The position numbers and the translations under genes were made by a program. Below are positions 9,436-63,999 of a stretch of DNA of 64,000 nt, in pieces. Within the stretch, counting starts at the first letter, position 1. Every line of letters starts with the position of its first letter. The DNA is from a virus: IMG/VR virus record IMGVR_UViG_3300017963_000203, positions 1 through 64,000 of that record; one strand, given 5' to 3'. The notes below the pieces were generated by a model. That model was not told where the DNA came from, searched no databases, and was given only the letters and a program-made list of their open reading frames with translations.

Positions 9436-9445
9436 GGATGGATCA

Positions 9446-16586: not shown

Positions 16587-16843
16587 GACAGAAGTACGTT
16601 CGTCACTCTACCGAAGGATTCATCGTCTGGCATAAGCGACCAGGCGATAGCGGGATCTGGCACAAGGAAATGACCCGCATGTTCCCGACTACTGGTGAGA
16701 TTCTCTCTGCTGGATTCGTGACCTTCGACGAGAATCATCTCCCGGTATGCCGTGGGTACTCTGAAAGCCTGGACCTGGGAAGTCGCCCCGAAGACACCAA
16801 CGCTCTCCGCGAGCAGTGGGGGTTACCCCCGAGTGAGGACTAA
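16583..16843 (+). CDS. hypothetical protein
   Basis: ATGA-coupled 86-aa ORF (SAGFV..C.GYSESLDLGSRPED). Confidence 0.65.
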   Translation: MRQKYVRHSTEGFIVWHKRPGDSGIWHKEMTRMFPTTGEILSAGFVTFDENHLPVCRGYSESLDLGSRPEDTNALREQWGLPPSED

Positions 16844-16847
16844 GAAC

Positions 16848-17405: not shown

Positions 17406-17408
17406 CCC

Positions 17409-17909: not shown

Positions 17910-17934
17910 GAGAGGTGGAGGAAGTCTATTTTTA

Positions 17935-18411: not shown

Positions 18412-18998
18412 AGATGGAACGCCTGTGGAATCGTGTCAAGACGTGCGTTCGATGCGATCGCGAGTACGTGAACAAGTACGTGTTCGGCGACGGCAGCGTG
18501 AACGCCCGTGTCATGATCGTGGGCGAAGGTCCTGGAGAAGAGGAGGACGCGACGGGCCATCCCTTCGTGGGGGAAGCCGGAGAGCTCCTCACAGACATCC
18601 TGAACATGGCTGGCTTTCCTCGCAGAGAGGAACTGTTCATCGCCAATGCCGTCAAGTGCAGACGTACGAGCCGACGAGGCGACAGGCTCAAGAACAAGAA
18701 GCCGAGCGACGGGGAGGTCGCCAGATGCAGTGTGTTCCTCCAGAATCAGCTCGAAATCGTGAAGCCCAGGGTGGTGGTCGGGCTCGGTGGAACGGCCATC
18801 GCCTCCTTGAAGGGGCTGAAGACCAAGGACGTCAAGTCCACGCAGATGGCAGGCCTGACCGAGAAGGGCCCGAACTGCTGGTACCTATGGACGTACCATC
18901 CTGCTTTCCCGATCTACCGCGGGAGAGACGTGGCTATCATTGAACAGATGGTGAGCCACTTCAAGAAGGCGAAGGAGCTGAGCCGTGGAAGAATCTGA
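18387..18998 (+). CDS. uracil-DNA glycosylase, family 4
   Basis: CVRC, GEGPGEEED..G.PFVGEAG, NAVKCR, LG.TA, TYHPA. Confidence 0.93.
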   Translation: MGRSPKLLKMERLWNRVKTCVRCDREYVNKYVFGDGSVNARVMIVGEGPGEEEDATGHPFVGEAGELLTDILNMAGFPRREELFIANAVKCRRTSRRGDRLKNKKPSDGEVARCSVFLQNQLEIVKPRVVVGLGGTAIASLKGLKTKDVKSTQMAGLTEKGPNCWYLWTYHPAFPIYRGRDVAIIEQMVSHFKKAKELSRGRI

Positions 18999-19230
18999 AA
19001 ACGCCGGGCCCGAACTTTTGCTGACCGACAGAGAGTCAGCGATGTTCCAGCGAATCCTTCGAGCGTCCCGTCGGGACGTGGAGAAGATCGACATCGAAGA
19101 GGAGAAGAACCTGGTGACAATCCGGTGCAAGCTCATGATCGATGTGCTCACTGTGGATCTGGACAAGGCCCTGGTAATGACTGATGACGCGTGGGCCGCT
19201 TTCTTCGCCAAACACAAACCGTTGATCTGA
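18985..19230 (+). CDS. hypothetical protein
   Basis: AAGGAG RBS before GTG. Confidence 0.6.
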   Translation: MEESENAGPELLLTDRESAMFQRILRASRRDVEKIDIEEEKNLVTIRCKLMIDVLTVDLDKALVMTDDAWAAFFAKHKPLI

Positions 19231-19237
19231 GGTGACC

Positions 19238-20203
19238 ATGAAGGATCTTGCGGACACCCTTGGTGAATTCATCGGGGGCCTGCTACCGGAACCACCGCTT
19301 GCAGCGGACATCAACCTGGACGAGATCGCAGAGGCGGGGCGGCTCGATCTGTGGCGCAAAGAGCAGAGAAAGCTCGACGCCAACTTCCATCCGTCATCCC
19401 TGTCCGATCCGTGCATGCGGTTCGACGTGGTCCGTCTCATGGTCGTCGGCAAGACCTGGGACAACGAGAAGCACCCGATCGCTATGACGATCAATCCCGA
19501 CCCCGACCCGAATCTGTTCGACTACATTCTGCATCGCCGGTTCGACACGGGCACGGCACTCCACGAGATGGAGCAGGATCGATACTTCGGGCGCACCCCG
19601 AAACTCCTCGGCTGGTGGCGCTGTACGAGCTGCAACCGTATCGTCCGTACGGCGCAGACACGCCCCAAGGACCGCTGCGACAACATCGTGACGGTGCGCT
19701 ACCCCAACGGGAAGCTCGCCGAGGAACGGTACTGCCAGAAGCATGGAGACTGGGAGTACCAGGAAATCCACATGCAGCACAAGGACCTCGCTATTCGGTC
19801 CCGCATCGACTTGCCCATCATCCACCAGGGTCGCGTCTACATCGGTGACCTGAAGACCCTCGGGACCGGGCGGTGGGACCAGCTCCAGAGATTCGGGCGT
19901 CCGTTCCAGAAGGACGAGACCCAGGTCAAGATCTACATCTTCCTGGCCGTCGAAGGAGGGTACTTCAATTTCCCGGTGGGGGGAGGTATACTGCGCTACG
20001 TTCACCAGGGGGACCCCGAGGCGAAGCCGATTCACTTCGGCGTTGCTCGTGACCCGGCCGTAGAGAACTGGCTTCACGAGTACATAGGCACCGTGCGTAA
20101 ACTCGCCGTCGAGGGCCGCTGGGAAGTTGCGACCTGTTTCTGTCAGAAGAAGACCCAAGCCAGAGCGAAGAGATGTGCGCTCCGGCCACTATGTTTTCAG
20201 TAG
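19238..20203 (+). CDS. Cas4-like PD-(D/E)xK exonuclease
   Basis: HPSSL..CMR, GTALHE, RIDL...DLKT, Q...Y, C-terminal Cys cluster. Confidence 0.8.
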   Translation: MKDLADTLGEFIGGLLPEPPLAADINLDEIAEAGRLDLWRKEQRKLDANFHPSSLSDPCMRFDVVRLMVVGKTWDNEKHPIAMTINPDPDPNLFDYILHRRFDTGTALHEMEQDRYFGRTPKLLGWWRCTSCNRIVRTAQTRPKDRCDNIVTVRYPNGKLAEERYCQKHGDWEYQEIHMQHKDLAIRSRIDLPIIHQGRVYIGDLKTLGTGRWDQLQRFGRPFQKDETQVKIYIFLAVEGGYFNFPVGGGILRYVHQGDPEAKPIHFGVARDPAVENWLHEYIGTVRKLAVEGRWEVATCFCQKKTQARAKRCALRPLCFQ

Positions 20204-29582: not shown

Positions 29583-29964
29583 GGATGTGGCGACGCTTCA
29601 AGAGAGCGTCGACCAGACCATCCACGGCGACGACATCTTCATCCCCTTCAAGAAGATGTCCCTGCGCCAGGGCGTCCTGGAGTACGGTGTGATCGAGATC
29701 GCACCGGACGTCTGCAAGCTCATCTTTCACTTCGAGAACGTCTCCAAGAACTTCGCCAATCAGCTTGGCCGGTTCTTCTGGGAGAAGGTACGCAGGAAGA
29801 TCATCACGGACGCGGACCTCATGGCCGGGGCATCCGTAGAGGCGGGTGAGAACCCCATCTTCAGAAGCAACTGGGACGTGACCATTCTCAACATCAGCGC
29901 TCTCGTCGCCCAGGCGAAGCTCAATCTCATCGTCGATAGTCTGAAAAAGGAGTTCCCTGTATGA
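29488..29964 (+). CDS. hypothetical protein
   Basis: GGAGAGG RBS; ATGA-coupled to the sigma gene. Confidence 0.7.
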   Translation: MGNLSSKPRKTPKIIQPGDPDYARLVGTVTDEDVATLQESVDQTIHGDDIFIPFKKMSLRQGVLEYGVIEIAPDVCKLIFHFENVSKNFANQLGRFFWEKVRRKIITDADLMAGASVEAGENPIFRSNWDVTILNISALVAQAKLNLIVDSLKKEFPV

Positions 29965-30923
29965 AAAAGACAAGCGCTGATTTCAGAGAGTACTACACGC
30001 AGTTTCGTGCCTATCCTCCTCTTCGCCCCACCGAGGAACGCCGCCTGCTGCACGTGATCAAAGGCCTGCAACCGCCAGTGGACTACGACGGCATGGAGCG
30101 AATGTGGGGAAAGCACAAGGAGAACGGGACCAAGGGCGCCATCGATGATCTGTGGCTCTCGCTCGACGAGAAGATGTGGGGCGTCAAACAGGAGAACCCA
30201 TTCCCAGTCAACGGAACCTGCCGGCGGCCAACGCGACAGGAAATGAAAGAGGCCCTCGAGCGTTTCGTCATGCACAACATGCGCCTGGTCCTGTCGAGAG
30301 TGCTGAAGTTCAGGCACCAGGAGGACCCAGACGTCATGGAGATCGTCTCCTACGGGACCGACGGTCTTTACCGAGCCATCGAGCTCTTCGACCTATCCCG
30401 CGGGACGAGGTTCTCCACCTACGCCGTCCACTGGATTGAGTCTCAGATCAGGAAAGGCCTCAAGTTCGTCGAAGGGCAGAAACCCCCTCTCCTGAAGAAA
30501 CTGACGAGCACGTTCAAGAGGGCCGAGAAAGACCTCACCACGGACGACGGCATTCGCCCGACGAACGAGGACGTGGCCGAGCACCTGAACTGGGGGCGAA
30601 AGACCCTGCACATCTACCAGACGTCAGGAATCTCCAATACGCCGATAGAGACCTTCGACCGCGAGGACGAATCGTGCGAACCCATACCCGATGACATCGT
30701 GCAGAGGGAGATTGTGAACGCTCTACACGACAACATGGGTGTTCTGGAGCCGTTCGAGGAGGACATCATCAGGAGGCACTACGGACTCGGCTACCCGGAG
30801 GAGACCCTACAGAAGCTGGCAGCCAGGTACGGCGTGACCAAGGAGCGCATCCGGCAGATTGAGAACGGCGGCCTCGAGAAGCTCTACATGGCCCTCCGCG
30901 CCTTCCGCGATCCGGACGATTAA
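29961..30923 (+). CDS. sigma-70 family RNA polymerase sigma factor
   Basis: Region 2 HNMRLV, GLYRAIELFD.SRGTRFSTYAVHWI; region 4 TLQKLAARYGVTKERIRQIE. Confidence 0.92.
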   Translation: MKKTSADFREYYTQFRAYPPLRPTEERRLLHVIKGLQPPVDYDGMERMWGKHKENGTKGAIDDLWLSLDEKMWGVKQENPFPVNGTCRRPTRQEMKEALERFVMHNMRLVLSRVLKFRHQEDPDVMEIVSYGTDGLYRAIELFDLSRGTRFSTYAVHWIESQIRKGLKFVEGQKPPLLKKLTSTFKRAEKDLTTDDGIRPTNEDVAEHLNWGRKTLHIYQTSGISNTPIETFDREDESCEPIPDDIVQREIVNALHDNMGVLEPFEEDIIRRHYGLGYPEETLQKLAARYGVTKERIRQIENGGLEKLYMALRAFRDPDD

Positions 30924-31781: not shown

Positions 31782-32006
31782 TTACTTGTTCATCTTCTTG
31801 AGAGTCTCGGCGAGACGCGCCCTCTTTCCGAGCTTCCCCGGGGCCTCAGCCGCCCGAGCCAAGGTCTTGGCCGGAATCTTCTTCCCCTGGGGAATGCCGA
31901 GCTGCTTGTGGAGTGCTCCGGGCTTCTTGATCGCCCGCTGGATCCACTTGCCCGCTCCTTGCTTCTCCAATTCGTCGAAGAAGCCGTAGATGAAAGGTGC
32001 GCTCAT
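31782..32006 (-). CDS. small basic virion protein with N-terminal tag
   Basis: FIYGFFDELEKQG then KWIQRAIKKPGALHKQLG..GKKIP...GKLGKRARLAETLKKM, a small basic phage protein type. Confidence 0.8.
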   Translation of the reverse strand: MSAPFIYGFFDELEKQGAGKWIQRAIKKPGALHKQLGIPQGKKIPAKTLARAAEAPGKLGKRARLAETLKKMNK

Positions 32007-32338
32007 CGGTTCCTCCCGAACCAGGTCTTGACTCGCTGAACGAGTCCGGGTTTCCGTTGCCGGAACGACGCGTATCTGCGCCGCATAGGCTTCAGCGACT
32101 TGATCCGTTTTCCAACGTCGCTTGCCATGCTCTTGGCCGACTCCATCACGGACCCGGACTCGATTGGTTTTTCCTCAGAACCACCCCCGGGGGTGGGAAC
32201 TACTTCGACCTGCGGAGCCTTCGTGTAGCCCCTGTATACCTCTTTCAGTTTACTCTGAAGGTCTCGAAGTTCCTTCTTTCCGAAGAACGCATTCTTCTCG
32301 AGCTCATCCAGAAATCCTGTTATGAAAGCTTCGTTCAT
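32003..32338 (-). CDS. tagged basic virion protein
   Basis: MNEAFITGFLDELEKNA tag; basic C-terminus. Confidence 0.75.
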   Translation of the reverse strand: MNEAFITGFLDELEKNAFFGKKELRDLQSKLKEVYRGYTKAPQVEVVPTPGGGSEEKPIESGSVMESAKSMASDVGKRIKSLKPMRRRYASFRQRKPGLVQRVKTWFGRNR

Positions 32339-33483
32339 CAGGCTGCCACGCCGCGACCCTGAATCTTCGCCGCGGTCCTCTTGGCCCACGGAATGGCTGC
32401 ACCCCACCCGCCACCGGGCGGCTTCGCTGCGGGAGGTGCGCCCACTCCTGCGCCGGCCGCAGCCCTGCCCAAGATGCCTGTGGGCTTCGACGGAGGAGTC
32501 CCGGTCGACGGTGTCGAGCCGATTCCCTTCGCCGCGCCCGCCATGACACCTGTGGGTTTCGCTGGCGCGCCGGCCGGACCGCCGCCGGGGCCAAACCTTC
32601 CGGCCGCGATGTTCCGTTCACGGATTTTTGCGCCTGCGGAAGCGACCGATGGAGCAGCGGGCTTCGCCAACGGTTTCGCCGGCGTGGCCGCATCGATCTT
32701 CCGGAACCTGGCCACGTCCTCACGGCCGCTGGCCCTCGCCGCGGCCCTGAGCTCGTTGCGACGCCGGATTTTCTTTCCGAGCGCAGCGAACGGATCGGCT
32801 TTCGGCTGGGCAGCCGCCGGAGGTGCCGTCTTCTTGGCCGCTTGAAGATCCTTCCAGCTCTTTGCTCCCCATCCGGACATGGGCCGGCTGCTGACCTTCT
32901 TTCCGGTATCGGCCACAGCCGGAGCCTTCTTGGGCTGCGCCACGGGAGGTGTGGCCTTCTTCGCTCCGATCTGGCGCGTGCCCACCCCCGGAATGGAGTA
33001 GGTGCCCTTTCCGGGCTTGCCCTTCCCCAGTCCGTGGCGCCCCATGATGCGCTTGGCACGCCCTGTCCGTACACGACCCACCGTGGCCTGGTCGGTTCCT
33101 TTGATGCGTCCGAAACGCAAGGAGCCGCCTTCAGCCGTGGATTTGAAGCCGCCGGTGCCTGTGGTCTTGCCGCCGGTGGCCAAGAGTTTCTTCGCGGCCG
33201 CCTGGCGAGCGCCGCCGATGCTGGCCTTGGCCCGGGACATGAACCGCTGCTTGGCCGCTCCGGAGAGATCCCGCCAGCCGGCGCTCTTCTCGAGCTCGTC
33301 GTAAAGGCCGGCGAAGAAGGCCTCCTCGAGGGAAGACATGGGGCCCTCTTCGTCCTCCGAAGCGAACTTGCTGAAGAACCCCGCCATGAAGATGTCCTCG
33401 GCGGTCGGTGCCGGGTCGGCGGGCGCGTCTGCCGCCTTCTCGAGCTCGTCCACGAGCCCACCCAGGAACACGTCGTAGTTCAT
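32338..33483 (-). CDS. Ala/Gly/Lys-rich virion protein with three N-terminal tags
   Basis: VFLGGLVDELEKAA, IFMAGFFSKFA, AFFAGLYDELEKSA then a low-complexity basic region. Confidence 0.8.
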   Translation of the reverse strand: MNYDVFLGGLVDELEKAADAPADPAPTAEDIFMAGFFSKFASEDEEGPMSSLEEAFFAGLYDELEKSAGWRDLSGAAKQRFMSRAKASIGGARQAAAKKLLATGGKTTGTGGFKSTAEGGSLRFGRIKGTDQATVGRVRTGRAKRIMGRHGLGKGKPGKGTYSIPGVGTRQIGAKKATPPVAQPKKAPAVADTGKKVSSRPMSGWGAKSWKDLQAAKKTAPPAAAQPKADPFAALGKKIRRRNELRAAARASGREDVARFRKIDAATPAKPLAKPAAPSVASAGAKIRERNIAAGRFGPGGGPAGAPAKPTGVMAGAAKGIGSTPSTGTPPSKPTGILGRAAAGAGVGAPPAAKPPGGGWGAAIPWAKRTAAKIQGRGVAA

Positions 33484-40388: not shown

Positions 40389-40898
40389 CTATACGATCAC
40401 CGAGATGAACCCCGTTCCTCCGACCCTGTAGCCGTCCCAGAGTTCCGAGGGGACGACTCCCCAGGCGAGATCGCAGTTCTGGTTAATTTTAAGTTCCTTG
40501 ACGAGCTTGTCGAACCCGTTGCCTGCGTCCCCTCCGCGCAATCTGGCGATCGTGGTGTTGTAGAACTGCCACTTGTCGTTGATCATCTTCCGCACGTTTC
40601 CATCCGTCACATCCAGCATGTTCCGCTGCATTCGGATGGACACGGAGGTGAGGGTCCTGGCCGCCGCTTCATCGACGACCAGAAGGGCTTGGGGACCGGT
40701 GAGACTTTCGATGGAGATGTCCAGGCCCGGGCCGCTGGGCTCGATGAGGTTGTACCGATGAACGGCGTCCACGAGCATCTCAGCCAGAAAGGTGTCCGGA
40801 GACTCCTCCGTCTCGATGAGCTCGTTGGCCTCCTTGTAGTCCTGGAGAAAGCGTCGAAGCTTTCCCACGAGGCTCACGGGGACCTTGTATTCCGGCAT
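40389..40898 (-). CDS. head-tail adaptor (putative)
   Basis: LRRFLQDY.EAN.LI, RN.L..TDG pattern; downstream of the capsid gene. Confidence 0.55.
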   Translation of the reverse strand: MPEYKVPVSLVGKLRRFLQDYKEANELIETEESPDTFLAEMLVDAVHRYNLIEPSGPGLDISIESLTGPQALLVVDEAAARTLTSVSIRMQRNMLDVTDGNVRKMINDKWQFYNTTIARLRGGDAGNGFDKLVKELKINQNCDLAWGVVPSELWDGYRVGGTGFISVIV

Positions 40899-41494
40899 CA
40901 GAACATCTCCATCAGATCGTCAGCCGCGCTCTTCTTGGCCGGAGCTTTCTTCTTGGCTGGAGCTTTCTTCCCCACCTTCTTCGGAGGCCTGTTGGCGATT
41001 CTCTTCCGCTTCTTCTCTTTCTTGGAAGCGGCCTTCGGCTTCTCCTCGGACTTCTTGGGGATCTCCACCGTCACGACAGCCTCTTCCGCAGGAACCTCGG
41101 GCTTGTCCGTGACCTTGACTGTGGTGGGCTCCCGGTCCAGAGGCTTCTCCTTGGCCTCCATCTTGGCCGCCATGACCCCGGCCTGGACGATCCTGGGCTC
41201 GGCGCCGGTGTCGTCCAGAGCGTAGCCTGGCGGGACCCTCACGTCGAATCCGGGCACGCGCAAGATCTGCGGATTCACGCCGATGACCTCCTTGGCCACC
41301 GAATCGGGAACCATGGCTCCGATGTTGATGATCAAGCCGTCGGGGCCGACAACCAGGAACCTGTCCCCGTATCGCCGGCGCTCGTCCGGAAGGATGTCGT
41401 CCAGGCGCGTCTTCACGGACGTGCCCGGCTTGAACCTCCGGATTTGGAGGTTCAGCGGCCCTTCCCCGTAATAGGTGATCTGTGCGGTTTTCAC
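40898..41494 (-). CDS. hypothetical protein with Lys-rich C-terminus
   Basis: AAGGAGG RBS before GTG; KKAPAKKKAPAKK. Confidence 0.7.
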   Translation of the reverse strand: MKTAQITYYGEGPLNLQIRRFKPGTSVKTRLDDILPDERRRYGDRFLVVGPDGLIINIGAMVPDSVAKEVIGVNPQILRVPGFDVRVPPGYALDDTGAEPRIVQAGVMAAKMEAKEKPLDREPTTVKVTDKPEVPAEEAVVTVEIPKKSEEKPKAASKKEKKRKRIANRPPKKVGKKAPAKKKAPAKKSAADDLMEMF

Positions 41495-42750
41495 GACGCC
41501 TCCTTTGATCTCCTCGTGAGATGAGCGAATTGAATCGAGCCACTCAGGAGTCCCTTCGCCTTTGGGACATCCGTCGTGCGTTTCTTGCCCGATACAAGTT
41601 TACGCCCGGTCTCGAGACGAAGGAACGGATTCTTTCTGAGGACCGGGCTTTTCTTCACGTTGGGATCCAGAAGCATCTTCGCGCCGGCGGCAAACTTGTC
41701 GAGGTACGATGCCTTCTTCTCCTGGCCCGTTCTTCGACGACCCTGGAGCCACTGCTGGATCTTACGACCGAGCAGCGCGCCCCCAATCGTGCCGCCCAGG
41801 GCGCCAATCCCAGGAGCGATTCCTGACGCTCCGGACATGCCTCGACGTGCGAGCGCGTCACCGACAGCACTCCCGGCAAGGCCGCCACCGATCATCCCTG
41901 CTGGAGCGAGGGCTGCACCCGGAAGACCTCCGACAGCGCCACCGCCACCAGCACCCAGGCCGAGGAGCATCATCAGTTCGATGAGCGTGAAGCCCTTCTT
42001 CTCGAGCTCGTCCTCGAAACCTTGCAGGAAGGCGGTCTTCTTCATCCTTCCGAATCTCCTCACGCGCGTCGTCTTCTCGATCATCACACCGCTGGGCGTG
42101 GGCTTGAATTCGGACTTGAGGGTCTCCCATCCCTCATTTCGAGGGCCCAAAGCGATGTCCTTGTCGCTGAATTTCTGTCCCCTGAAAACCCTGGCCACCT
42201 CCTCCTCAGACCCCTGTTTCTTCATGCGCTCGATGTCCTTCGTGTCCTTCTCGCGCCCCATTCTACGCTTGAAGTCCAGGGTCGTGGGAACGTCCCAGTG
42301 CTTGAGGCCGCGAAGCGTGGTCGTGGGCACGTTGCTGAAGTCACGACCACCGACGTACCACCGACCGGTGAAGACGGTGATCGGGCCGTAGTTGGTCCTG
42401 ATGGTGAGCATGGGGGAGCCGATTGGACTCCGCCCCGGGACTGCGCCGGGAAAGGAGGACATCTTCTTGAACGCTTCCTCCGGTACCTGAACGTCGAGAT
42501 CGTTGATCTCTCGCAGGCCCAAAGCGCCGAGGAGTGCGCTCCCCCCCAGGACCACATCGCTCTTCGGGACGCCGGCATGAGCCAGGATGCGCTCGAGCAT
42601 GGCCGTAAGCTGGATGTACTTCGTCGCCTGGCCCTTCTTCTCCATGCGCCTTCTCCGTCGTCGCTTGGGGATGATCTTCCGGACAGCCTGCATCATGTCC
42701 TGGGCCGTGTCCGGGTCGAACCGTCGCCGATGCTTCGGGTATCGTGGCAT
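41491..42750 (-). CDS. modular virion polyprotein: nucleotidyltransferase domain + pilin-like/glycine-zipper segment
   Basis: GGSALL...REINDLDV and GREKDTKD NTase motifs (42211-42630); AFLQGFEDELEKKG|FTLIELMMLL; modules bounded by Kx[AG]. Confidence 0.75.
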   Translation of the reverse strand: MPRYPKHRRRFDPDTAQDMMQAVRKIIPKRRRRRRMEKKGQATKYIQLTAMLERILAHAGVPKSDVVLGGSALLGALGLREINDLDVQVPEEAFKKMSSFPGAVPGRSPIGSPMLTIRTNYGPITVFTGRWYVGGRDFSNVPTTTLRGLKHWDVPTTLDFKRRMGREKDTKDIERMKKQGSEEEVARVFRGQKFSDKDIALGPRNEGWETLKSEFKPTPSGVMIEKTTRVRRFGRMKKTAFLQGFEDELEKKGFTLIELMMLLGLGAGGGGAVGGLPGAALAPAGMIGGGLAGSAVGDALARRGMSGASGIAPGIGALGGTIGGALLGRKIQQWLQGRRRTGQEKKASYLDKFAAGAKMLLDPNVKKSPVLRKNPFLRLETGRKLVSGKKRTTDVPKAKGLLSGSIQFAHLTRRSKEAS

Positions 42751-42765
42751 GGCCGATCTCCGACG

Positions 42766-42805
42766 AAAAAGCCCCACCCGCCTCAGAGCCGGGCGGATGG
42801 GGCTC
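42766..42805 (-). terminator. terminator after the major capsid gene
   Basis: AGCCCCATCCGCC...GGCGGGTGGGGCT-TTTT on the - strand. Confidence 0.75.
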
Positions 42806-42837: not shown

Positions 42838-44028
42838 TTACACCACGGCCGGCAGCGCCGCCTGGAGGTTGTCGTTGATGATGGTGAAGTTCCCGGCCGA
42901 GGCCGTGACGCCCGCGGGCGTCTGGAACGTCACCGGCAACGTCATCCTGGCTCCCTTGAGCAGGATGGCGCCGAGGGCGCGGATGTTGCCGAAGCCGGCC
43001 CCGACGTCCTCCCAGGCCTCCATCTCGATCCAGCGGCTCCGCTTGTCGATGAAGAACTTGGTGTTCTCCAGGACCATGAAGCGGCCGATGAACTCGGGGG
43101 CCGGGAACACGTAGATGACGCCCGGCTCGACGAGGTCGTCGTTGTCCCGGATCGTGGTCACGAAGGTGTAGCCGCCCACGGTCGTGTACTTGTACCCGTC
43201 GCGGACGATCTCGCTCGTGATCTCGAGGCCGGCCTCCGTCAGCGACCACGCGACGGTGTCGGTCCAGGTGACCTCGTGGAGGAGGAAGGTACGCGCCTTC
43301 TGCTGGCGCGCGGCGGGGATCTTCACGAGGTCCTTCAGGACCACGCGGTTCCAGTCGTCCTCGTCGGAGAGGATGATGTTGGAGTAGATCGCGTCCGCCC
43401 GGTTGAGGTTGGCCGTGGGAATCGGGGCCCACGCGCCGGCGCCCTTGGCCCTCTGGAAGAGGAAGCGCATGAACTCGGCCTGATCGCCGAAGTTCCTCGT
43501 GCCGCCGGCGACGACGCCGCGCTGCACGAGCTTGTTGTAGTTGTACCGGGTGCCCAGGAAAAGCCCCGACTTCACGTGCTGCATGAACGTGAAGTCCTCC
43601 TGCTCCTGGATGTCCTTGGCGATGTTCTGCTCCAGGATCTTGGTGAGGGGCATGCGGTAGGAGCGGAGCTCCTGCTCGGACTTGATGATCTTGTCCGAGG
43701 AGATCGTGTGAAACACGATCTTGTACCGCGGAGCCTGGATGTAGGTCTTCTCCGGCTCGCCGCGCCAGTTGATGTGCATGGCGATGGAATCCGGCTCGAG
43801 GTCGTCGATGTACTCGAGACCTTCGTCCTCGATCCTCCGCTGGCACTCCTTCTCCGTCACGACCTTCGGAGGCAGGATCTTGCGGCAGAAAGCGTTCTCA
43901 CGGAGCTTCTGCTGGATGTACAGGCCGCTGGCCTGTCCGAGCTTCGTGAGCGCCTCGCCGCCGACCTCGAGGGTCTGCCCGAACAGCGTGTTGAACTGCT
44001 CGGCGTTGAACGCGCCCGTATCCGACAT
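42838..44028 (-). CDS. major capsid protein
   Basis: 396 aa, strongest codon bias, AGGAGG RBS, KLRENAFCRKILPP, DIQEQED..F, own terminator; follows protease/scaffold genes. Confidence 0.8.
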   Translation of the reverse strand: MSDTGAFNAEQFNTLFGQTLEVGGEALTKLGQASGLYIQQKLRENAFCRKILPPKVVTEKECQRRIEDEGLEYIDDLEPDSIAMHINWRGEPEKTYIQAPRYKIVFHTISSDKIIKSEQELRSYRMPLTKILEQNIAKDIQEQEDFTFMQHVKSGLFLGTRYNYNKLVQRGVVAGGTRNFGDQAEFMRFLFQRAKGAGAWAPIPTANLNRADAIYSNIILSDEDDWNRVVLKDLVKIPAARQQKARTFLLHEVTWTDTVAWSLTEAGLEITSEIVRDGYKYTTVGGYTFVTTIRDNDDLVEPGVIYVFPAPEFIGRFMVLENTKFFIDKRSRWIEMEAWEDVGAGFGNIRALGAILLKGARMTLPVTFQTPAGVTASAGNFTIINDNLQAALPAVV

Positions 44029-46283: not shown

Positions 46284-47819
46284 TCAAACCTTTTTCATCT
46301 TCAACCCGACCAGGAAAGGCGTCACCGGCCGGAACCTGTCACTCGCAGTTTTAATCCCCGCCAAAGCATTTTCAACCGCGTCGGGGTCACGAATCAGCAA
46401 AGTTTTCTCTGCTGCTTTCACCAGGTCTTCGACATCCAGTCGCCCGAGTGCTTCCAGGTACTTGTCGTAGACTTCGCTTGCCCCCTTGTCAAGAGCCGCC
46501 CCCGGCTTTGGTCCTGAGATTCTTATAATCCTGACCACGCGTTTGGCAAATGGCGGATCAAACAAACTCCTGCTCGGGATCAACTCTTTGAACTTCGATA
46601 GGAGTCTGGGGAGTACTGAATCCAAGTCAAGTCGTTCCGGAACTTTCTCCGAGTCTCCCTCTGTGATGATCTCCACTTCGGGTTTCTTGAGAAGGATACC
46701 CGATGCTGTTGCGCCGTTAAAGATTTCCTCCGGAGACATCGTTTGGCGCATCGATTTGAGGGACACGGCCGGAATGCACCTCGACGCGTTGTCATCCTCT
46801 TTCACGAGGTTCGAGAGGATTTTCTGTGCCTTCGGCTTGAGCAGAGTCTTGCCGAGATTGTCCTGGCCAGGTTCGGCTGGGACTTCTTTGCTGATCTCGC
46901 CAAGCTTGAAGATCGTTCTTTTCTTTCGCATGGATTCCTGCGCCGAGGCAACCTTCACGAAGTCGACACTACGAATGGTGTAATCTTCGTGACGTTGGAC
47001 AACCGTGGGGTCGGCTGTTGGAAGATGAACGCCGGCGACTTTTCGAAGGGAATACGCTGGAGCGAATGCTGGCGTGATTACTCTCGAAATATCGAAGAAC
47101 CTCGGGAACCAGTTTTCTGCCGCGACCTTTCTTCCGTCTGGAAGCGTGACGTTCAACAGCGTCCGAAGATGCTCACAGTACTGGTTCCGATTCTTCGCCA
47201 CATTCTTGCAGATGGAGCAAACGTCGAACGCGACCTTGCAACCCATGGACCACGGAATGGGCTCACCACGGTCGATCATGCCCACGAGATCCGGGGCGGA
47301 AAGACCAACGCCGTCCCTTGGTGGATCCTTTCGAATGAAAACGATGAGCTCTCCGCGGCGCATCTTCTCGTTGTATGCCGCGCAAATCACCTTCTCCCCG
47401 ATGGAGAACTTCGGGTCTTTGTTGTTGTGAAGGACGAACGGGTAGGCATAAGTCTCGAAGGTGCTGATACCGTACTCCGGAGGAATCGGACGGCCGGTCT
47501 TTCTGAGGAACGCCTGGATGTCCGGAGGGGGCGGCTCATGAAGGAGAGACCACTCCCAGAAGCTGTCGCCGTTCTTGTTGCTCCCCCATGCCTCGGTAGC
47601 ACCCACGGCGTTGATGTGCACGTATCTACCGTCTTCCCTCGGAGAGAGGGAGGCCGCAGCTTTGATGAGACGCTCCGGAATGTAGACCTCGGACGCTGTC
47701 TTCTCGAAGACGCGCGAATGGATCGGGAGATAGGACGGGCCCCACCTGGCATCGTATGCGGGGGCCACGTGCTTCTCCATCTCCGGAGAGAGGATCAGAT
47801 TTGCTCTCTTGTCGATCAT
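46284..47819 (-). CDS. prohead maturation protease
   Basis: NKNGDSF, His (VLHNNKD), Ser (WSMGC), CSIC..CEH Zn insertion, FFDISRV..PA; upstream of scaffold/capsid genes. Confidence 0.75.
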   Translation of the reverse strand: MIDKRANLILSPEMEKHVAPAYDARWGPSYLPIHSRVFEKTASEVYIPERLIKAAASLSPREDGRYVHINAVGATEAWGSNKNGDSFWEWSLLHEPPPPDIQAFLRKTGRPIPPEYGISTFETYAYPFVLHNNKDPKFSIGEKVICAAYNEKMRRGELIVFIRKDPPRDGVGLSAPDLVGMIDRGEPIPWSMGCKVAFDVCSICKNVAKNRNQYCEHLRTLLNVTLPDGRKVAAENWFPRFFDISRVITPAFAPAYSLRKVAGVHLPTADPTVVQRHEDYTIRSVDFVKVASAQESMRKKRTIFKLGEISKEVPAEPGQDNLGKTLLKPKAQKILSNLVKEDDNASRCIPAVSLKSMRQTMSPEEIFNGATASGILLKKPEVEIITEGDSEKVPERLDLDSVLPRLLSKFKELIPSRSLFDPPFAKRVVRIIRISGPKPGAALDKGASEVYDKYLEALGRLDVEDLVKAAEKTLLIRDPDAVENALAGIKTASDRFRPVTPFLVGLKMKKV

Positions 47820-58317: not shown

Positions 58318-61300
58318 TCACTCCTCGAGCTTGTCCACAAGTTCCTGTAGAGCCGCACTCACGTCCCCGTCGAGATCGGAATGAACAACCTCTTCGGGCT
58401 CGACCATCAGGGACATTATAGAGTCGATCTCACGGGTGAGAGCCACCTTGGACATGTTCTGGTCCACTTTCGTGTTGAAGTACTTTCCGAAAGCGTACGT
58501 AGCAATGGGATGGCCACCAGGACCGATGTTGGAAACGGCTCCGAGCCCCGGGGCGGCCTTGAGTGTCTGGTGGGGCCGCTCGGCTACGAGCTGACCGATG
58601 AAGTCGTTCGCGTATTGAGGAGCCTTCCTGATGGACAAGAGCGTAGGCGTGAACACAATGGGCTGCTTTCCCTTCTTCCGCAGCTTCTTGTTCATGGCCT
58701 CCAGATTGTTCACGGAGATCACGTCGCCTCGGTGCACCCCGAACTCCACGTCTGCATCGCCCGGCTCGTCCACTTGGGCCCGTGTCGTGAGTGGATGGAT
58801 GGCAGTCTCGAAGATCTTCCGCTTCACCCGGACGCCGGCGTCGGTGAAGACCCGGCTCATGTCACCGATCATTCTCTCCTGAACGACGTGGATGTCGTTG
58901 GTGGCCGCGAGGACATCCTGAGGCTTGACAGCCCCGCCAGCCGAGAGCATCTGACCGGCTCGAACGGATTGACCCTTCTTCACGCCCAGACCGACCTCCT
59001 TGGGCACGAAGTGTCGCATTCCCGCGACACTCACGTTCCAGCCGCCAGCGGCGGAAGTCTCTATGCTGTCGATCTTTCCGCCCTGGAGTGCCAAAATGGC
59101 ACGGCCCTTCACATTGGTGGGCATCTCAAGGATCTGTTTCAGCCTGGGGTAGCCCAAACTTGCACCGCCCAGGGCGCCGCCCGTGTGAAACGTCTTCATC
59201 GTGAGCTGCGTTGCCGGCTCCGAAATCGTTTGACCGGCGAGTGTTCCGACATGGTAACCCACGTTGGGGAGGTTTCCGTTCTCCAACGGACCAAAGCACA
59301 TGGCGCAGACGCCCCGAGTGGCCTGGCACCGTAGGGGAGACCGAACCTTGATCTTCTTCACGCCGCGCGCCTTGAGGTTCCTGATGAGCTGCGGGTCGGT
59401 GATCTTCCCGCGGTATGGCCCACTGGCCACGACCCGGTCAAGCGCTTCTGGATCCGTGATGCCCATTTCGATACCCATGGTCGTCCCGCAATCCCGCGCT
59501 GAGATGGTCGTGTCCACTGTAGCGGCGATGAGCGCCTTTCCGAATGCGCCGGTGTCAGCCGTCGAAAGCGTACGGTCCATGAGGCCCTTCCGGGAGCCGG
59601 GGATCATGGCCCAGAAGCTGCCCATGTCCATGCCCTCGGAGAAGGACTTCTCGATGGGCACCTCGATGATCTTCCCCTCGTGATCTGTCACGGCCACGGG
59701 CGAGGCGACCATCTGGGTGATCATATTGGACTTCCCGAAAGCCCCGGAGAGTGGACCTCCGATGACCATCCGGTTGTCCACCTTGGCCTTGACCGCACGC
59801 TCCATCTCCTTCTGGGCCCGCCCGTAGGCCTTGGCGAAGCCCATGGTCTTGGCGTTCTTCTTCGCCTTGGCCAAAATGGAGTCGCGCTCGTTCTTCGGGA
59901 AGGAGAGATCGCCCAGGTCGAAAGACCATCCAATCTCGGTCACGTACTTGTTCCCGAGATCCTTGATCTTCGAAATCACCTGGCCGGCCACGGCCGGCTT
60001 CTTCCTGGCAACGTCATGGATGATCTTCATGAGCTTCCCCTTGTCGACCGAGATGTTTCCCGGTTTGAATCCGACAGGGAACGCCTGGTTGAAGATGATC
60101 TGCCCTGCGCAAATCCGATTCCCGTGAATTGACACCGCTTGATTGGCTTTGATGCGGCCGCTCCGGTACATCTGGAGAACCTCGTTCTCTGAGCTCGCCT
60201 TAGTGACCGCTGCGCCTTTCGGGGTGGTCATGAGGTAGACCCCGAGAACCATTTCCATCGATGGAGAGTGGATCAGGCTGTTATCCCGGGGACTGAAGAG
60301 GTTGTTGCTCGGGAGCAGATTTGTCGTAGCCTCGCGGCGAGCATCCTCCGACACCGGTACGTGGACCTGCATGGCGTCGCCATCGAAATCGGCGTTGAAC
60401 CCCTTCACCACGAGAGGGTTGATCTCGATGGCCTTACCCTTCGTGAGCATGGGCTTGAAGGAGAGAAGGCTGAATTTGTGGAGGGACGGGGCTCGGTTCA
60501 GCACGACCGGCCGCTCCCGGACTACGGCCTCGAGTGCGGAGAGGGCTGAAGGATCTCGCTTCTCGATCAGTTCCCTGGCCTTCAGTGGCGGATACCCGAG
60601 CATCCCCATCCTCTGGACGATGAAAGGCTTGTAGATGGTGAAGGCCATTTCCTCGGGAATCTTCGCCTCATCGATGCCGAGTTTGGGGTCCGGGATGATC
60701 GTGGACCGGCCGGTGAGGTCCTGCCTGCGCTTCAGCACACGACCTTGAAAGAGGCCGTACTTGTTCTGCTGTCCCTTGATGGTGGCCAGGAATCCCTTGA
60801 AATTCTGGCTTCTGGTCAGAGGCTCCTGCAACCCCACCAGCCCACGGACCGCACCGTAGAGCTGCGCCCGGAGTGGAGCAAGGTTCTTGTCGTCCACACC
60901 CAAGCTCTTGAGGTCCTTGATCTGGTTGTTCACCATGAGGACCTCTCGGTAGCCGTGTACGGGATCCGCCACGTTCAGCGTTCCGTCCGGATTGGGGTAG
61001 ATGGGGCGCATCTTGGCCGGAACGACGGGCACCTTCGAGTTGAGGTACGCCTTCGCCGGCGTCAGGTTCACAGCCTTGAGCGCACGGAGATATCGGAGCT
61101 TCTTGATGGCTACGTCACGCCGATCCCCCTTCAACCCGCTGACCTGGCGCCGCAAACTCCTCAGCTCTCCGTCCACGTCGATCTTCGATAGAAGAATCTT
61201 GAGACCTTCGCCGCCCGTCTTGTTCTGAGGTGCGTGATCGTGGGTGATCTCTCCCTCCGGCGTGACCCACAACGTGCCGTTGATGAGTCCGTTAAACTGC

Positions 61301-63999
61301 GTTCGCTTGAACGGACGCCCGGGCTGGCTGAGAACGCCCATGATAGCCTGATCCATGAGTGGATTGGCGATGGGTCCCTCGAGGTCGATGTGATTCCAGT
61401 AGTTCCCGTCGAAACCGCCTGTCAACCCTCGATCAAAGAGGCCCCGCGGCTCGGGGGCCAAGTCGTTGGCCCGCACTACGCCAGGACTCGTGATGGCCCC
61501 GTTGCTCTGGTCGAGGATATCCTCGTCAGTGAGCGGGAGTGCCTTGAGCTTCTTGCCCTCCTGCTTCACGTTGATCCCGGCGCCCTTCATGTAAGCCATG
61601 AACTTGTTCACCACGAAGGGCGACTTCGGTGGCGGCGTCGGGAGGCCGAGCTGGATGGCACGCCAGAACTCGTCGTTCTTCTGGGACTTGATCGTGGCCG
61701 CATCCCGCAGAAACGCCGTGCCTCCGGAAGAAAGGAGCGAGTAGAGCTCCATCATCCCGATGGCCATGGGGCTGGCGTGAGGTTCACGTGCCGGAGATTC
61801 GTCGTGGGTATACGTCGTGTGGCCACGGGCGCTCAGCTTCTTCGAGACCTGGTGGCGCAACTTCACGAAGTGCAGATTTCCCGTCTGCACATTGTCGTGG
61901 TACTTGTTCGTGGTCGGATCGTGGAGACGTTCGGCACTGTTACGGTTGAGACCGTTGGCCTCGAGCTGCTGACGAATGTGCTCCGTGGCGTCTGCCACAC
62001 CACCGAAGTTCTGGACGAGGTACGGCTTCCCCGTCTTCTCGGCGATCTTCCCCGCGGACGCTTCGAGATACGCCCCGGGATTGGCCCGGCCAAGGACTCC
62101 GGACGGATTGAAGAGGACGTCGAGGGGCTTGCCATCCTCGCCGTGATACATCTCCTTGTCCGGAAGGATCATCGTGACGATGCCCTTTCCGCCGTGCCTC
62201 TGAGAGAGCTTGTCTCCGACCTCCAACGTCTCCTCGGTCTTCACATAGACGGTGATGAACTTTCGCGTCTTGACCACGTTCATCACCTCGGCCGGGTATT
62301 CGCTGTCCCACCGAACCGACACATCCTGCCACTGGTGCTTCAGAGACCGGTGCAAACTGGCGTAGCTGAATTCCTCGTGGACCTTTATCTTTCTCACGGC
62401 TGGAATCGCCACATCACCCATCTGGAGGACGGCGCCAGTCTTCACAATCCCGTTGGGGCCGTACTTCGACCGGTCCAACCCCTCGGCCTCAGCGGGGAAG
62501 TGAGCCAGGAATACCGGAAGCCCCACGCTGATCGTAGAGTCCAGGTTCAGGGTCATCTCGTGTTTATGCACCGAGGTGAGTTTCTTGGCCGCAGTCTCCG
62601 AGACGACGATACCGTCCTCGAAGTTGTACCCCTTGTAAGGCATGAATCCCGTTCGAAGGCTCTTCCCGAGAGCCAAGGCGCCGTTACGCGTGAAGTCGGA
62701 ATCGGCCACCGGCTGACCCTTCCGCACACGGTCTCCCGTCTTCACAATCGCCTTCTCGTTCAGGAAAGCGTTCGAATTGAGCGGGTAGTGATCGTGGAGC
62801 GGGACGGTGTACGTCTGCCCATCGTTCCCTTGAATCGTGATCTTCTTCGAAGTGACACGCTTCACCACACCGTCCACTGGAGCCTGGGGCACGATACGCT
62901 CGCCAACAGCCGTCTCGTAGCCCCGCGCTCCGAACTTGGACTGAACGAGGGGCACGTCCGGGTCCTTCAACGGCACGGCCTGGGTGATGTGATGACTCGC
63001 CATGAGGATCCGGTTGGGGCTGTTCGTGTGAACGAAGGGGACGGCATTGGCCGCGAAACTGAGGATCTTGGAGGCGCTGTCCACGATGTAATCCACCTGA
63101 CGTGCGGGGATCATCTTGAACTCGCCTTTGTACCGGGCCTTGACCGGATCTCTCCGCGCTTTCGGCGGCGTCCTGGTGGTGTCGAACTCATCGTTGAACG
63201 CGAGCACCTTGTCCTCGAGGTCGAAGGCTTTCTTCGTCTCTCTCGCGCCCGTCTTGGCGTTGATCACCGTCAGCCCAATGTCGTTCCCGATCTTCTTGGA
63301 ACCGAGAGCGAGATGGGCATTGATGCCGATCTTGCTCGACTCTGGCGTCTGAACAGGGTCGAAGATCCCCAGGTGGCTCGGGTGCAGGGCACGGAGTCGG
63401 TCACTTACCGCGTGTACGGAGGAGATGCCTCCCTCGCCCATGGACGTGACCAGGGACTGCACGCCCACCATGTCGAGGGGATTATTCTGGTCGCTGTATC
63501 GAGAGAACTCGCTTGTGGTGAAGAACCGCTGCACGGGCTTGGTAAAAAGAGAAGGTGGAAGCACGTCGACCACTGACGGCCGGCGATCGATCTGGAATCG
63601 AATCGACCTCTCGGCTGTCGGTACGTTCTGCTCGAGCTTCTCGACGATGAAATCGTCCACCGAATGCAGGGACTTGTAGGCCAGGTTCTCAGTGTCGTCG
63701 GCCTTCACCTCTCCGCGAGCCAGAGCCAGGGCCTTCTCGCTCGAAGCCACAAGGACCTTGGGCTCGATGCGGCTGTATCGGGTCCCAAGCGTCAGCTTCG
63801 TGATGTTCGGATCCAGCGGTTTGCTGGCAAAGAACTTTCCGATGGCCTCGGCCAAGGCTTCCTGACCCTCCGGCTGGTCGGCGTAGGGTCGCATCTTTTT
63901 GTAGAGCTTCGCCAACTCAGCAGGGCGGTCGTACTTCCGATTCTCTTGGAGGATCTCGTCGCCCCAGATCTTCCGAAGGTCCACATCGGTGACGCCCAG
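58318..63999 (-). CDS. rpoBC: fused beta/beta' multi-subunit RNA polymerase (5'-truncated by the window edge)
   Basis: beta motifs HPSH...TPES..IG, GYNFED, GDKLSQRHGGKG, KLRHQV; beta' motifs NRAPSLH, NADFDGD, GQTISEPATQLTMKTFHTGG in one frame; frame open to the window end. Confidence 0.95.
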   Translation of the reverse strand: MGVTDVDLRKIWGDEILQENRKYDRPAELAKLYKKMRPYADQPEGQEALAEAIGKFFASKPLDPNITKLTLGTRYSRIEPKVLVASSEKALALARGEVKADDTENLAYKSLHSVDDFIVEKLEQNVPTAERSIRFQIDRRPSVVDVLPPSLFTKPVQRFFTTSEFSRYSDQNNPLDMVGVQSLVTSMGEGGISSVHAVSDRLRALHPSHLGIFDPVQTPESSKIGINAHLALGSKKIGNDIGLTVINAKTGARETKKAFDLEDKVLAFNDEFDTTRTPPKARRDPVKARYKGEFKMIPARQVDYIVDSASKILSFAANAVPFVHTNSPNRILMASHHITQAVPLKDPDVPLVQSKFGARGYETAVGERIVPQAPVDGVVKRVTSKKITIQGNDGQTYTVPLHDHYPLNSNAFLNEKAIVKTGDRVRKGQPVADSDFTRNGALALGKSLRTGFMPYKGYNFEDGIVVSETAAKKLTSVHKHEMTLNLDSTISVGLPVFLAHFPAEAEGLDRSKYGPNGIVKTGAVLQMGDVAIPAVRKIKVHEEFSYASLHRSLKHQWQDVSVRWDSEYPAEVMNVVKTRKFITVYVKTEETLEVGDKLSQRHGGKGIVTMILPDKEMYHGEDGKPLDVLFNPSGVLGRANPGAYLEASAGKIAEKTGKPYLVQNFGGVADATEHIRQQLEANGLNRNSAERLHDPTTNKYHDNVQTGNLHFVKLRHQVSKKLSARGHTTYTHDESPAREPHASPMAIGMMELYSLLSSGGTAFLRDAATIKSQKNDEFWRAIQLGLPTPPPKSPFVVNKFMAYMKGAGINVKQEGKKLKALPLTDEDILDQSNGAITSPGVVRANDLAPEPRGLFDRGLTGGFDGNYWNHIDLEGPIANPLMDQAIMGVLSQPGRPFKRTQFNGLINGTLWVTPEGEITHDHAPQNKTGGEGLKILLSKIDVDGELRSLRRQVSGLKGDRRDVAIKKLRYLRALKAVNLTPAKAYLNSKVPVVPAKMRPIYPNPDGTLNVADPVHGYREVLMVNNQIKDLKSLGVDDKNLAPLRAQLYGAVRGLVGLQEPLTRSQNFKGFLATIKGQQNKYGLFQGRVLKRRQDLTGRSTIIPDPKLGIDEAKIPEEMAFTIYKPFIVQRMGMLGYPPLKARELIEKRDPSALSALEAVVRERPVVLNRAPSLHKFSLLSFKPMLTKGKAIEINPLVVKGFNADFDGDAMQVHVPVSEDARREATTNLLPSNNLFSPRDNSLIHSPSMEMVLGVYLMTTPKGAAVTKASSENEVLQMYRSGRIKANQAVSIHGNRICAGQIIFNQAFPVGFKPGNISVDKGKLMKIIHDVARKKPAVAGQVISKIKDLGNKYVTEIGWSFDLGDLSFPKNERDSILAKAKKNAKTMGFAKAYGRAQKEMERAVKAKVDNRMVIGGPLSGAFGKSNMITQMVASPVAVTDHEGKIIEVPIEKSFSEGMDMGSFWAMIPGSRKGLMDRTLSTADTGAFGKALIAATVDTTISARDCGTTMGIEMGITDPEALDRVVASGPYRGKITDPQLIRNLKARGVKKIKVRSPLRCQATRGVCAMCFGPLENGNLPNVGYHVGTLAGQTISEPATQLTMKTFHTGGALGGASLGYPRLKQILEMPTNVKGRAILALQGGKIDSIETSAAGGWNVSVAGMRHFVPKEVGLGVKKGQSVRAGQMLSAGGAVKPQDVLAATNDIHVVQERMIGDMSRVFTDAGVRVKRKIFETAIHPLTTRAQVDEPGDADVEFGVHRGDVISVNNLEAMNKKLRKKGKQPIVFTPTLLSIRKAPQYANDFIGQLVAERPHQTLKAAPGLGAVSNIGPGGHPIATYAFGKYFNTKVDQNMSKVALTREIDSIMSLMVEPEEVVHSDLDGDVSAALQELVDKLEE

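Follow-up and report, generated by a model that had tools for sequence, protein, structure and literature searches.

Results

An NTase module lies in a late gene directly behind the capsid gene

The stretch of DNA analyzed here (the window) comprises 64,000 nucleotides, positions 1 to 64,000 of IMG/VR record IMGVR_UViG_3300017963_000203, which derives from an uncultured virus, is 130,894 bases long, and is 68% complete as estimated by CheckV. At bases 42211–42630 of the minus strand, the window encodes a nucleotidyltransferase (NTase) module corresponding to residues 50 through 189 of a 428-codon open reading frame (ORF) at 41491–42777, whose product we call the carrier. The sequence EKKG (residues 46–49) stands on the N-terminal side of the module and KKQG (residues 186–189) forms its end, and between them lie LGGS (residues 77–80), DLDV (residues 93–96), and K..GREKD..D (residues 170–181). 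An original prediction had drawn attention to this module and proposed that it is an enzyme of the AbiEii/MenT type, embedded between cleavage sites, delivered by the virion, and acting at injection on tRNA, protein, or signaling nucleotides. The location, the three motifs, and the two flanking sequences are all present as that prediction had described them, and the capsid gene is indeed located directly upstream of the carrier gene. The capsid assignment itself derives from two weak matches, one to the major head protein family phrog_2522 (E 6.4e-6) and the other to the HK97-fold capsid model NF042927 (E 3.6e-7; 29.4 bits against a curated cut-off of 80).

A terminator-like GC hairpin followed by a run of T residues separates the capsid and carrier genes, and a similar hairpin is found at the equivalent place in the related locus L002. 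Gene callers begin the carrier at Met45 (P0002), which is positioned exactly at the edge of the module in the sequence MEKKG. However, two relatives (P0004 and P0005) conserve the amino acid sequence of the Arg-rich leader encoded upstream of this codon, and for this reason we placed the start at ATG 42750, which is preceded by GGAG 7 nucleotides upstream. Met10 is therefore more likely than Met45 to be the initiating residue, yielding a product of 419 amino acids. In order, the carrier consists of the basic leader, the NTase cassette, a middle module, a tag helix, a Gly-rich hydrophobic segment, and a basic tail.

The predicted fold of the module is that of a Pol-beta NTase

A phmmer search with the module among 1.84 billion representative sequences identified 60 proteins at E≤1e-3, including the protein from the window itself and a spurious repeat protein (P0019) that was dropped. 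Forty-three of these proteins are 126 to 169 amino acids long, as expected of a domain that stands alone, and a further 15 exceed this length. By using an alignment of 41 stand-alone homologs (A2), we obtained an AlphaFold2 (AF2) model of the module with a predicted local distance difference test score (pLDDT) of 95.3 and a predicted template modeling score (pTM) of 0.88. The leading Foldseek matches to this model in the PDB are all NTases, with a probability of 1.00. VIA-align ranked TM1012 of Thermotoga maritima (PDB 2ewr and 2fcl), a putative nucleotidyltransferase, as the best match (Z 12.3, with 136 of 145 residues aligned at a root-mean-square deviation of 2.9), and it assigned Z scores of 10.3 to MenT1 (131 residues aligned), 10.2 to LnuA, 9.4 to ANT(2'')-Ia, 8.8 to MenT3/TglT (135 residues aligned), and 7.7 to FKRP. 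A TglT E146Q mutant also appears among the PDB titles of the structural neighbors. In BFVD, the structural matches include unnamed small proteins of the jumbo phages RSF1, RP12, PhiEaH1, EL, and 201phi2-1, along with LicD-family proteins of giant viruses. The model thus confirms that the module is a Pol-beta nucleotidyltransferase by predicted fold. A Foldseek comparison had been set as a check beforehand, with any fold other than that of an NTase to count against the original prediction; the fold found is that of an NTase.

At the level of sequence, the module matches phrog_12854, a family of unknown function, with E values of 3.3e-5 when the ORF is used as the query and 9.3e-6 when the module is used, covering profile positions 10 through 129 of 137. 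The same family is matched by 33 of 42 homologs, with a best E value of 6e-26. Pfam, PADLOC (E≤1), and NCBIfam revealed no family for the module; the Pfam matches among the 42 members are all sub-threshold and are distributed over NTP_transf_5 (nine members), DUF6036 (six), NTP_transf_2 (one), and Polbeta (one). A sequence search of the PDB with the ORF yielded nothing but a spurious Gly-rich Hsp70 match, and a PDB search with a 42-row profile of the module had no match at E≤10. Likewise, no shorter homologs were found in a word-indexed protein search, and 50,697 GenBank phage records contained no tblastn match to the module or to P0058. No cultured or annotated relative was thus found, and no virion proteome could be linked to the carrier. 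A limited search of the literature returned nothing on the phrog_12854 NTase family.

The proposed likeness to AbiEii and MenT proteins therefore holds for structure, in that MenT1 and MenT3 are among the neighbors listed above, but does not extend to family membership. PF08843 is matched at E≤1 by none of the 42 members nor by the ORF, PADLOC reports nothing, and no antitoxin partner accompanies the gene, which has the capsid gene upstream and a gene for a basic late protein of 198 amino acids downstream, with no AbiEi or MenA antitoxin adjacent. The module belongs to a separate phage family, phrog_12854, that resembles TM1012 more closely than MenT.

The copy in the window lacks the third catalytic carboxylate

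The NTase superfamily is characterized by an hG[GS] motif where the second helix begins, a [DE]h[DE]h motif in strand 2, and a third carboxylate within h[DE]h on an adjacent strand (Kuchta et al., PMC2794190). We counted residues in 60 aligned domain rows, using module numbering in which position 90 is Thr134 of the ORF. The hG[GS] columns contain G in 45 rows, followed by a column with S in 48 and G in nine. The two Asp residues of the DxD motif are nearly invariant (D49 in 55 rows and D51 in 57), as are the residues of the C-terminal motif (K126 in 54 rows, R131 in 52, K133 in 55, D134 in 53, and D137 in 52). The copy in the window retains every one of these residues: G, S, D49, D51, K126, R131, K133, D134, and D137.

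The strand that carries the third motif is different. The family sequence is G-[ED]-I-E-I-F, whereas that of the window is G-P-I-T-V-F. Position 90 is E in 45 rows, D in five, and T in three, and position 88 (Pro132 of the ORF) is E in 20 rows and D in 10. The local alignment is unambiguous here, since G87, F92, T93, G94, and W96 all match, and this strand holds the sole tallied conserved acidic site between the DxD and C-terminal motifs. Threonine at position 90 is confined to the window copy, its nearest full-length relative P0003, and P0041, the last of which additionally lacks the DxD and KD motifs. The copy in the window, which reads I-T134-V at this site, is without the third carboxylate of the Pol-beta superfamily and is therefore a homolog by fold with an incomplete catalytic set. 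The original prediction correctly recognized the GGS, DLD, and K..GREKD..D elements but overlooked the absence of this motif (PITVF in place of GEIEIF).

In the aminoglycoside-modifying enzyme ANT(2'')-Ia, Asp86 binds Mg and serves as the base, and a D86A mutant is inactive (PMC4313920). The distance from the DxD motif to the third carboxylate is 40 residues in ANT(2'')-Ia (46 to 86) and 39 residues in the module (51 to 90). On the basis of column conservation, strand order in the model, and this spacing, we infer that position 90 is the equivalent of Asp86. The module of the window is probably impaired in catalysis, and its activity is doubtful because Thr replaces the third metal-binding carboxylate and because the closest relative has lost further catalytic residues. 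Its description as an active enzyme is questionable on these grounds, although a nucleotide-binding role may persist. Four stand-alone homologs (P0026, P0029, P0034, and P0041) have lost the DxD motif, the K..R.KD motif, or both, and so inactive forms of the family recur beyond the lineage of the window.

The module is a portable cassette

The carrier is common to four proteins, namely that of the window (P0001), P0003, P0004, and P0005. All motifs of the module are intact in P0005, the window copy carries E90T, and P0003 combines E90T with D49S and D134S (module numbering) and is without D137. P0004 precisely lacks residues from about 45 to 185, and its leader joins the middle module directly. 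The gene for P0004, found at loci L001 and L002, begins shortly downstream of the capsid stop codon and a similar hairpin, and it is followed by homologs of the next two genes of the window. This synteny indicates that P0004 is encoded by the orthologous gene at the equivalent location, from which the cassette is absent. Furthermore, the gap in P0004 matches the module, and the module edges are therefore real joints. EKKG thus marks a genuine boundary, as had been proposed, with the caveat that it coincides with the gene-caller start at Met45. Identity between the window and P0003 is 54% in the module, compared with 77% in the middle module, 88% in the tag, and 66% in the tail, indicating that the module drifts faster than its carrier. 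The NTase module is a true portable cassette in a late gene of the head module.

Relatives join the NTase to nucleic-acid enzymes

Several longer homologs combine the NTase with other enzymes. P0018 contains the NTase, a LigD_N phosphoesterase, and an ATP-dependent ligase; P0012 (2542 amino acids) contains the NTase and LigD_N; P0017 contains the NTase, DUF4269, and InPase; and P0006 contains a P-loop kinase, the NTase, and sigma-70 region 3. Searches of viral contigs with alignment A1 and with P0012 recovered no related loci, but a locus search with a three-row alignment (A5) recovered three from IMG/VR (L003, L004, and L005), which share a terminase PHROG or RNA polymerase (RNAP) PHROGs with the window and whose NTase copies all have a complete GEIE motif. 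At L004, genes for terminase, portal, and a 446-amino acid ORF are followed by one for a protein of 3474 amino acids (8957–19381, plus strand) that carries a ligase (residues 27–209), the NTase (residues 352–489), a weak match to LigD Prim-Pol, DJ-1/PfpI, and LigD_N. As judged from these domain matches, this giant protein of the head module would contain a repair set resembling LigD. The 939-amino acid protein of L005 (8069–10888, plus strand) adjoins RNAP genes and comprises LigD_N, ligase, DUF4269, NTase, and a terminal C39 peptidase, which may be a self-processing domain. In L003, the NTase is N-terminal in a protein of 768 amino acids, with genes for terminase and an InPase protein nearby.

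Because its relatives are fused to a LigD-type phosphoesterase and a DNA ligase, the NTase family most likely adds nucleotides to the 3′ ends of nucleic acids. These partners favor nucleic-acid ends over proteins or signaling nucleotides, the targets suggested previously, as the substrate of the family. Ligase, LigD_N, and InPase were not found in the record of the window, which is 68% complete, and the NTase is present there as a single copy.

A recurrent tag links the carrier to other late proteins, and KK patterns stand at its joints

The tag in the carrier belongs to a motif, aFxxGFxDELEK, that occurs eight times in the window, always in late ORFs of the minus strand (starting at 51613, 51256, 46135, 42030, 33468, 33318, 32326, and 31994), compared with 0.005 occurrences in shuffled sequences. 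It forms the N terminus of three ORFs of 381 (32338–33483), 134 (32003–32407), and 74 amino acids (31782–32006) and is internal in others, including one beside a protease-like gene. In addition, the pattern KK.?[GA] occurs five times in the carrier, each time at a joint set by insertions or deletions among the homologs. Shuffled sequences contain it 1.18 times on average, and five occurrences were reached in 0.4% of them.

Three of the joints read R-M-(E)KK, with purine-rich stretches resembling GGAG or GAAGG before the ATG codons at 42645, 42225, and 42045. Because these joints follow an ATG, fossil or internal starts represent an alternative to protease sites. Moreover, the tag is downstream of the NTase, and cutting at KK|TA would therefore leave the enzyme piece with the basic leader alone. 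A candidate protease is encoded by the ORF at 46284–47819 (511 amino acids), which has a weak match to phrog_18299 (E 2.2e-4), no Pfam match, and nothing below E 0.3 in a sequence search of the PDB. The head-module location of the gene, next after that of the capsid, together with the basic leader and the shared tag, makes it plausible that the carrier is loaded into the capsid and cut at KK-G/A joints. The designation of EKKG and KKQG as cleavage sites is an interpretation rather than an observation.

Two other explanations for the tag were considered and set aside. As a double-glycine leader for a C39 peptidase, an idea prompted by the C39 domain of L005, the tag plus KKG has hydrophobic and acidic spacing that does not fit the Gly-Gly rule, and no C39 peptidase was seen in the window. 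The prohead cut rules of T4 (L/I-x-E) and phiKZ (S/A/G-x-E) are likewise not fitted consistently by the tags.

Other features of the carrier and its surroundings

The positions of the features discussed are collected in Table 1. Outside the NTase, the carrier has few recognizable parts. A full-length AF2 model built on a four-row alignment has a pLDDT of 46, with the NTase part alone folded, and the Gly-rich segment has weak matches to tape-measure and tail-lysin PHROGs. An ESM Atlas search with the module-less P0004 was uninformative (scores of about 0.8 with TM under 0.3, led by Gly-zipper proteins). Directly after an EKKG, residues 263–272 (41962–41991, minus strand) read GFTLIELMML, which resembles a prepilin cleavage and methylation site and is conserved in P0003 and P0004.

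Table 1. Features of the carrier gene and associated late genes in the window.
Feature	Coordinates	Strand	Basis
Major capsid protein gene, HK97 fold (weak matches)	42838..44028	-	phrog_2522 6.4e-6; NF042927 3.6e-7, below cut-off
Terminator-like GC hairpin with T run	42770..42790	-	Sequence; similar one in L002
Carrier gene, likely 419 amino acids	41491..42750	-	GGAG 7 nucleotides upstream; leader conservation
Arg-rich basic leader, residues 10–44	42646..42750	-	18/35 identical in P0004; also in P0005
Pol-beta-fold (predicted) nucleotidyltransferase cassette, residues 45–189	42211..42645	-	AF2, structural matches, phrog_12854, absence in P0004
hG[GS] motif, G78-G79-S80	42538..42546	-	Family alignment
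[DE]h[DE]h motif, D93-L-D95	42493..42501	-	Family alignment
Third-motif strand P-I-T-V-F, with T134 and P132 replacing acidic residues	42370..42384	-	Family alignment
C-terminal motif K170..G-R175-E-K177-D178..D181	42235..42270	-	Family alignment
Conserved middle module, residues 190–245	42043..42210	-	77% identity to P0003, 57% to P0004
Tag KKTAFLQGFEDELEKKG, residues 246–262	41992..42042	-	Motif recurrence; 88% identity to P0003
GFTLIEL prepilin-like start, then Gly-rich hydrophobic stretch, residues 263–345	41743..41991	-	TIGR02532 E 0.023, below cut-off
Basic C-terminal tail, conserved, residues 346–428	41494..41742	-	64–66% identity to P0003 and P0004
Candidate head maturation protease (weak)	46284..47819	-	phrog_18299 E 2.2e-4, residues 175–257

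The next gene (40898–41494, minus strand) encodes the basic protein of 198 amino acids mentioned above, whose C terminus is a histone-like tail rich in Lys, Ala, and Pro with DDLMEMF as its last residues. Conserved in both L001 and L002, this protein may be an internal component of the head that associates with DNA. Late genes farther downstream include a match to Neck1/tail completion (phrog_5), and the record also has a terminase gene (phrog_675, 5.8e-51). At 58318–63984 on the minus strand, a giant ORF of 1888 or more amino acids, which is open at the end of the window, matches phrog_25354 (4e-113) and phrog_24349 (1e-77). Both are beta-like PHROGs of phage multisubunit RNA polymerases, and the ORF is on the same strand as, and upstream of, the head genes; L005 has the same RNAP-like genes. 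An ORF of 320 amino acids (29961–30923, plus strand) resembles a sigma-70 factor by eye, and in P0006 a homolog is fused to sigma-70 region 3.

Discussion

We modestly favor an explanation in which the module is a Pol-beta NTase cassette of the phrog_12854 family, residing in a minor late protein whose gene follows that of the capsid, and is probably a weakened or dead transferase. Intact members of the family would add nucleotides to the 3′ ends of nucleic acids within an end-repair or counter-defense kit, and this kit would travel with the phage DNA. Packaging in the capsid and cleavage at the KK-G/A joints would be plausible steps along this route. The copy in the window would keep the residues that hold the nucleoside triphosphate (GGS, DxD, and K..R.KD..D) but would lack the carboxylate that binds metal and acts as the base. 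It would thus be a decaying or repurposed passenger, en route to the more decayed state seen in P0003 or to the deletion seen in P0004.

Several observations weigh against this explanation. The decay series is thin, because the module in this carrier is seen only in P0001, P0003, and P0005. The near-invariant residues other than the third carboxylate are kept at only about 40% identity to relatives, which suggests continued selection on the active site, and Thr may be tolerated at the position of the third carboxylate. The equivalence of Thr134 and Asp86 is drawn from alignment column, strand order, and spacing rather than from a superposition of coordinates. Partner enzymes may reside in the missing part of the 68%-complete record. 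The patterns for the tag and the joints were both written after seeing cases, and the presence of the carrier in virions is proposed from its context.

A related but more ambitious account, to which we give a low probability, takes a previously undescribed TM1012-like phage family to supply the nucleotide-adding activity of an end-repair kit that resembles LigD and is carried in the capsid. Housed in giant, tag-jointed head proteins and injected with the genome, the kit would repair DNA or RNA ends that host defenses have cut. Such a kit would comprise the NTase, a 3′-phosphoesterase, an ATP-dependent ligase, and sometimes a kinase, a pyrophosphatase, or a sigma factor, in a lineage of RNAP-encoding phages, and the module of the window would be a cassette that is losing catalysis within a small, membrane-active ejection protein. 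It is likewise unlikely that the module is an active, capsid-packaged enzyme of the MenT/AbiEii kind that is freed by a protease at EKKG and KKQG and, once injected, nucleotidylates host tRNA, proteins, or signaling nucleotides. Much of what we found is compatible with that proposal, including the NTase fold, for which MenT1 and MenT3 rank among the best neighbors, the retention of GGS, DxD, and K..R.KD..D, the placement of the gene after that of the capsid within the head module, the enrichment of KK.?[GA] joints and their presence at the module edges, and the common tag that marks late proteins, and T4 Alt offers a textbook precedent for an enzyme delivered by the capsid (PMC5512222). However, the module lacks the very carboxylate whose loss kills ANT(2'')-Ia, the hidden Markov model that defines AbiEii links to 0 of 42 members, and PADLOC finds nothing. 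The partners of the family point to repair of DNA or RNA ends and not to poisoning of the host, further catalytic residues are missing from P0003 and the entire module from P0004, and both the cleavage and the packaging are inferred, not observed.

We consider it quite improbable that the carrier remains in the infected cell as a late, membrane-associated protein with a function related to assembly, lysis, or superinfection, and that the KK joints are the fossil or live internal starts of once separate small genes. The three R-M-(E)KK joints with purine-rich stretches before their ATG codons agree with this idea, as do the start at Met45 chosen by gene callers, the listing of the tag-bearing half in L001 as a separate ORF that begins with TTG, the Gly-rich hydrophobic segment with its prepilin-like GFTLIE, and the lack of structure outside the NTase in the full-length model. 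Nevertheless, Leu occurs instead of Met at two of the joints in P0003 and P0004, the gene stands between the capsid and neck genes in an order that is the same in L001 and L002, the tag is common to ORFs that adjoin the terminase and the protease-like gene, and in L004 an intact member of the family forms part of a giant protein encoded beside portal. Least probable among these possibilities is that the family consists of small-molecule or glycan transferases of the LnuA, ANT(2''), LicD, or FKRP kind that modify an antibiotic-like compound or an envelope polymer. Although LnuA, ANT(2'')-Ia, and FKRP are indeed among the structural neighbors (Z 10.2, 9.4, and 7.7), LicD-family proteins appear in BFVD, and TM1012 is the best template for fukutin and FKRP (PMC2794190), the partners of the family are ligase, LigD phosphoesterase, P-loop kinase, pyrophosphatase, and a sigma region, with no sugar or envelope enzymes among them, and none of the 42 members matches a LicD or aminoglycoside family in Pfam.

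Comparison with characterized systems helps to define what is distinctive about the module. TM1012 is likewise a single small NTase domain of similar length, but its identity to the module is only 12 to 16%, there is no link at the level of sequence, and it is a functionally uncharacterized bacterial protein that stands alone, whereas the module is a cassette in a phage head-module gene. MenT toxins add nucleotides to the 3′ ends of tRNA, which is the kind of chemistry suggested for the module family by its ligase and phosphoesterase partners. MenT1 and MenT3 share with the module the NTase fold, the hG[GS]...DxD arrangement, and a C-terminal motif of the K...R..D..D type. Unlike these toxins, the module is about half the size of MenT3 and has no antitoxin gene, no PF08843 or PADLOC match, and no third carboxylate. 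LnuA and ANT(2'')-Ia resemble the module in their small, two-part NTase architecture and in the spacing of about 40 residues between the DxD motif and the third carboxylate. They act on antibiotics, and nothing in the context of the module points in this direction; moreover, ANT(2'')-Ia requires Asp86 (PMC4313920), whereas the copy in the window has Thr.

The relatives invite a different comparison. In bacteria, LigD, which functions in nonhomologous end joining, unites a phosphoesterase, a ligase, and a polymerase. P0018, L004, and L005 similarly unite a LigD_N phosphoesterase and an ATP-dependent ligase, with the NTase where LigD has its polymerase; unlike that of LigD, their nucleotide-adding part would have a Pol-beta fold and is not a primase-polymerase of the AEP superfamily. 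The record of the window, unlike P0018, L004, and L005, has neither ligase nor phosphoesterase.

T4 Alt and the internal proteins IPI–III of T4 carry a capsid targeting sequence and are processed by gp21. The carrier resembles these proteins in being an enzyme or basic protein that is encoded with head genes and in having a short peptide that is common to late proteins. It differs in that its tag is another peptide, located downstream of the enzyme rather than at the N terminus, and in that its protease is only weakly identified; moreover, the T4 proteins are delivered with DNA, whereas such delivery is proposed for the carrier from its sequence. Polyvalent proteins of the phage type have been argued to be packaged and then freed by embedded peptidases (Iyer et al. 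2017, PMC5512222). The larger relatives of the module, with 939 to 3474 amino acids, resemble them in having many enzymes per chain; one of them is encoded beside terminase and portal, and another contains an embedded peptidase domain. Polypeptides with at least two effector domains clearly occur in L004, L005, P0012, P0017, and P0018, and P0017 joins the module to InPase, which is a marker of polyvalent proteins of the phage type. Encoding together with portal, terminase, or head genes is another polyvalent feature, seen in the window (after the capsid gene) and in L004. By contrast, the carrier of the window has one recognizable enzyme domain alongside modules of unknown kind. The passages of the survey by Iyer et al. 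that concern Pol-beta NTases place them in conjugative elements only and not in phage-type proteins (PMC5512222), and relative to these passages the association of a TM1012-like NTase with phages appears to be new.

Capsid-carried enzymes act before phage genes are expressed, and to our knowledge few of those from phages have been characterized, namely T4 Alt, the N4 virion RNA polymerase, and P1 Dar. An NTase family that is without a Pfam model has now been placed in a head-gene setting, and its fusions with LigD-type domains and ligase provide a testable function. A note of caution is warranted by the copy in the window, whose eye-catching motif pattern is real and yet lacks one of the three catalytic carboxylates. 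Assays would therefore be better directed at relatives with the full catalytic set, for example the module at the N terminus of the 768-amino acid protein of L003. The occurrence of intact, probably crippled, more decayed, and deleted versions of the module within one orthologous gene would represent, on a small scale, the turnover of cargo in head proteins of phages.

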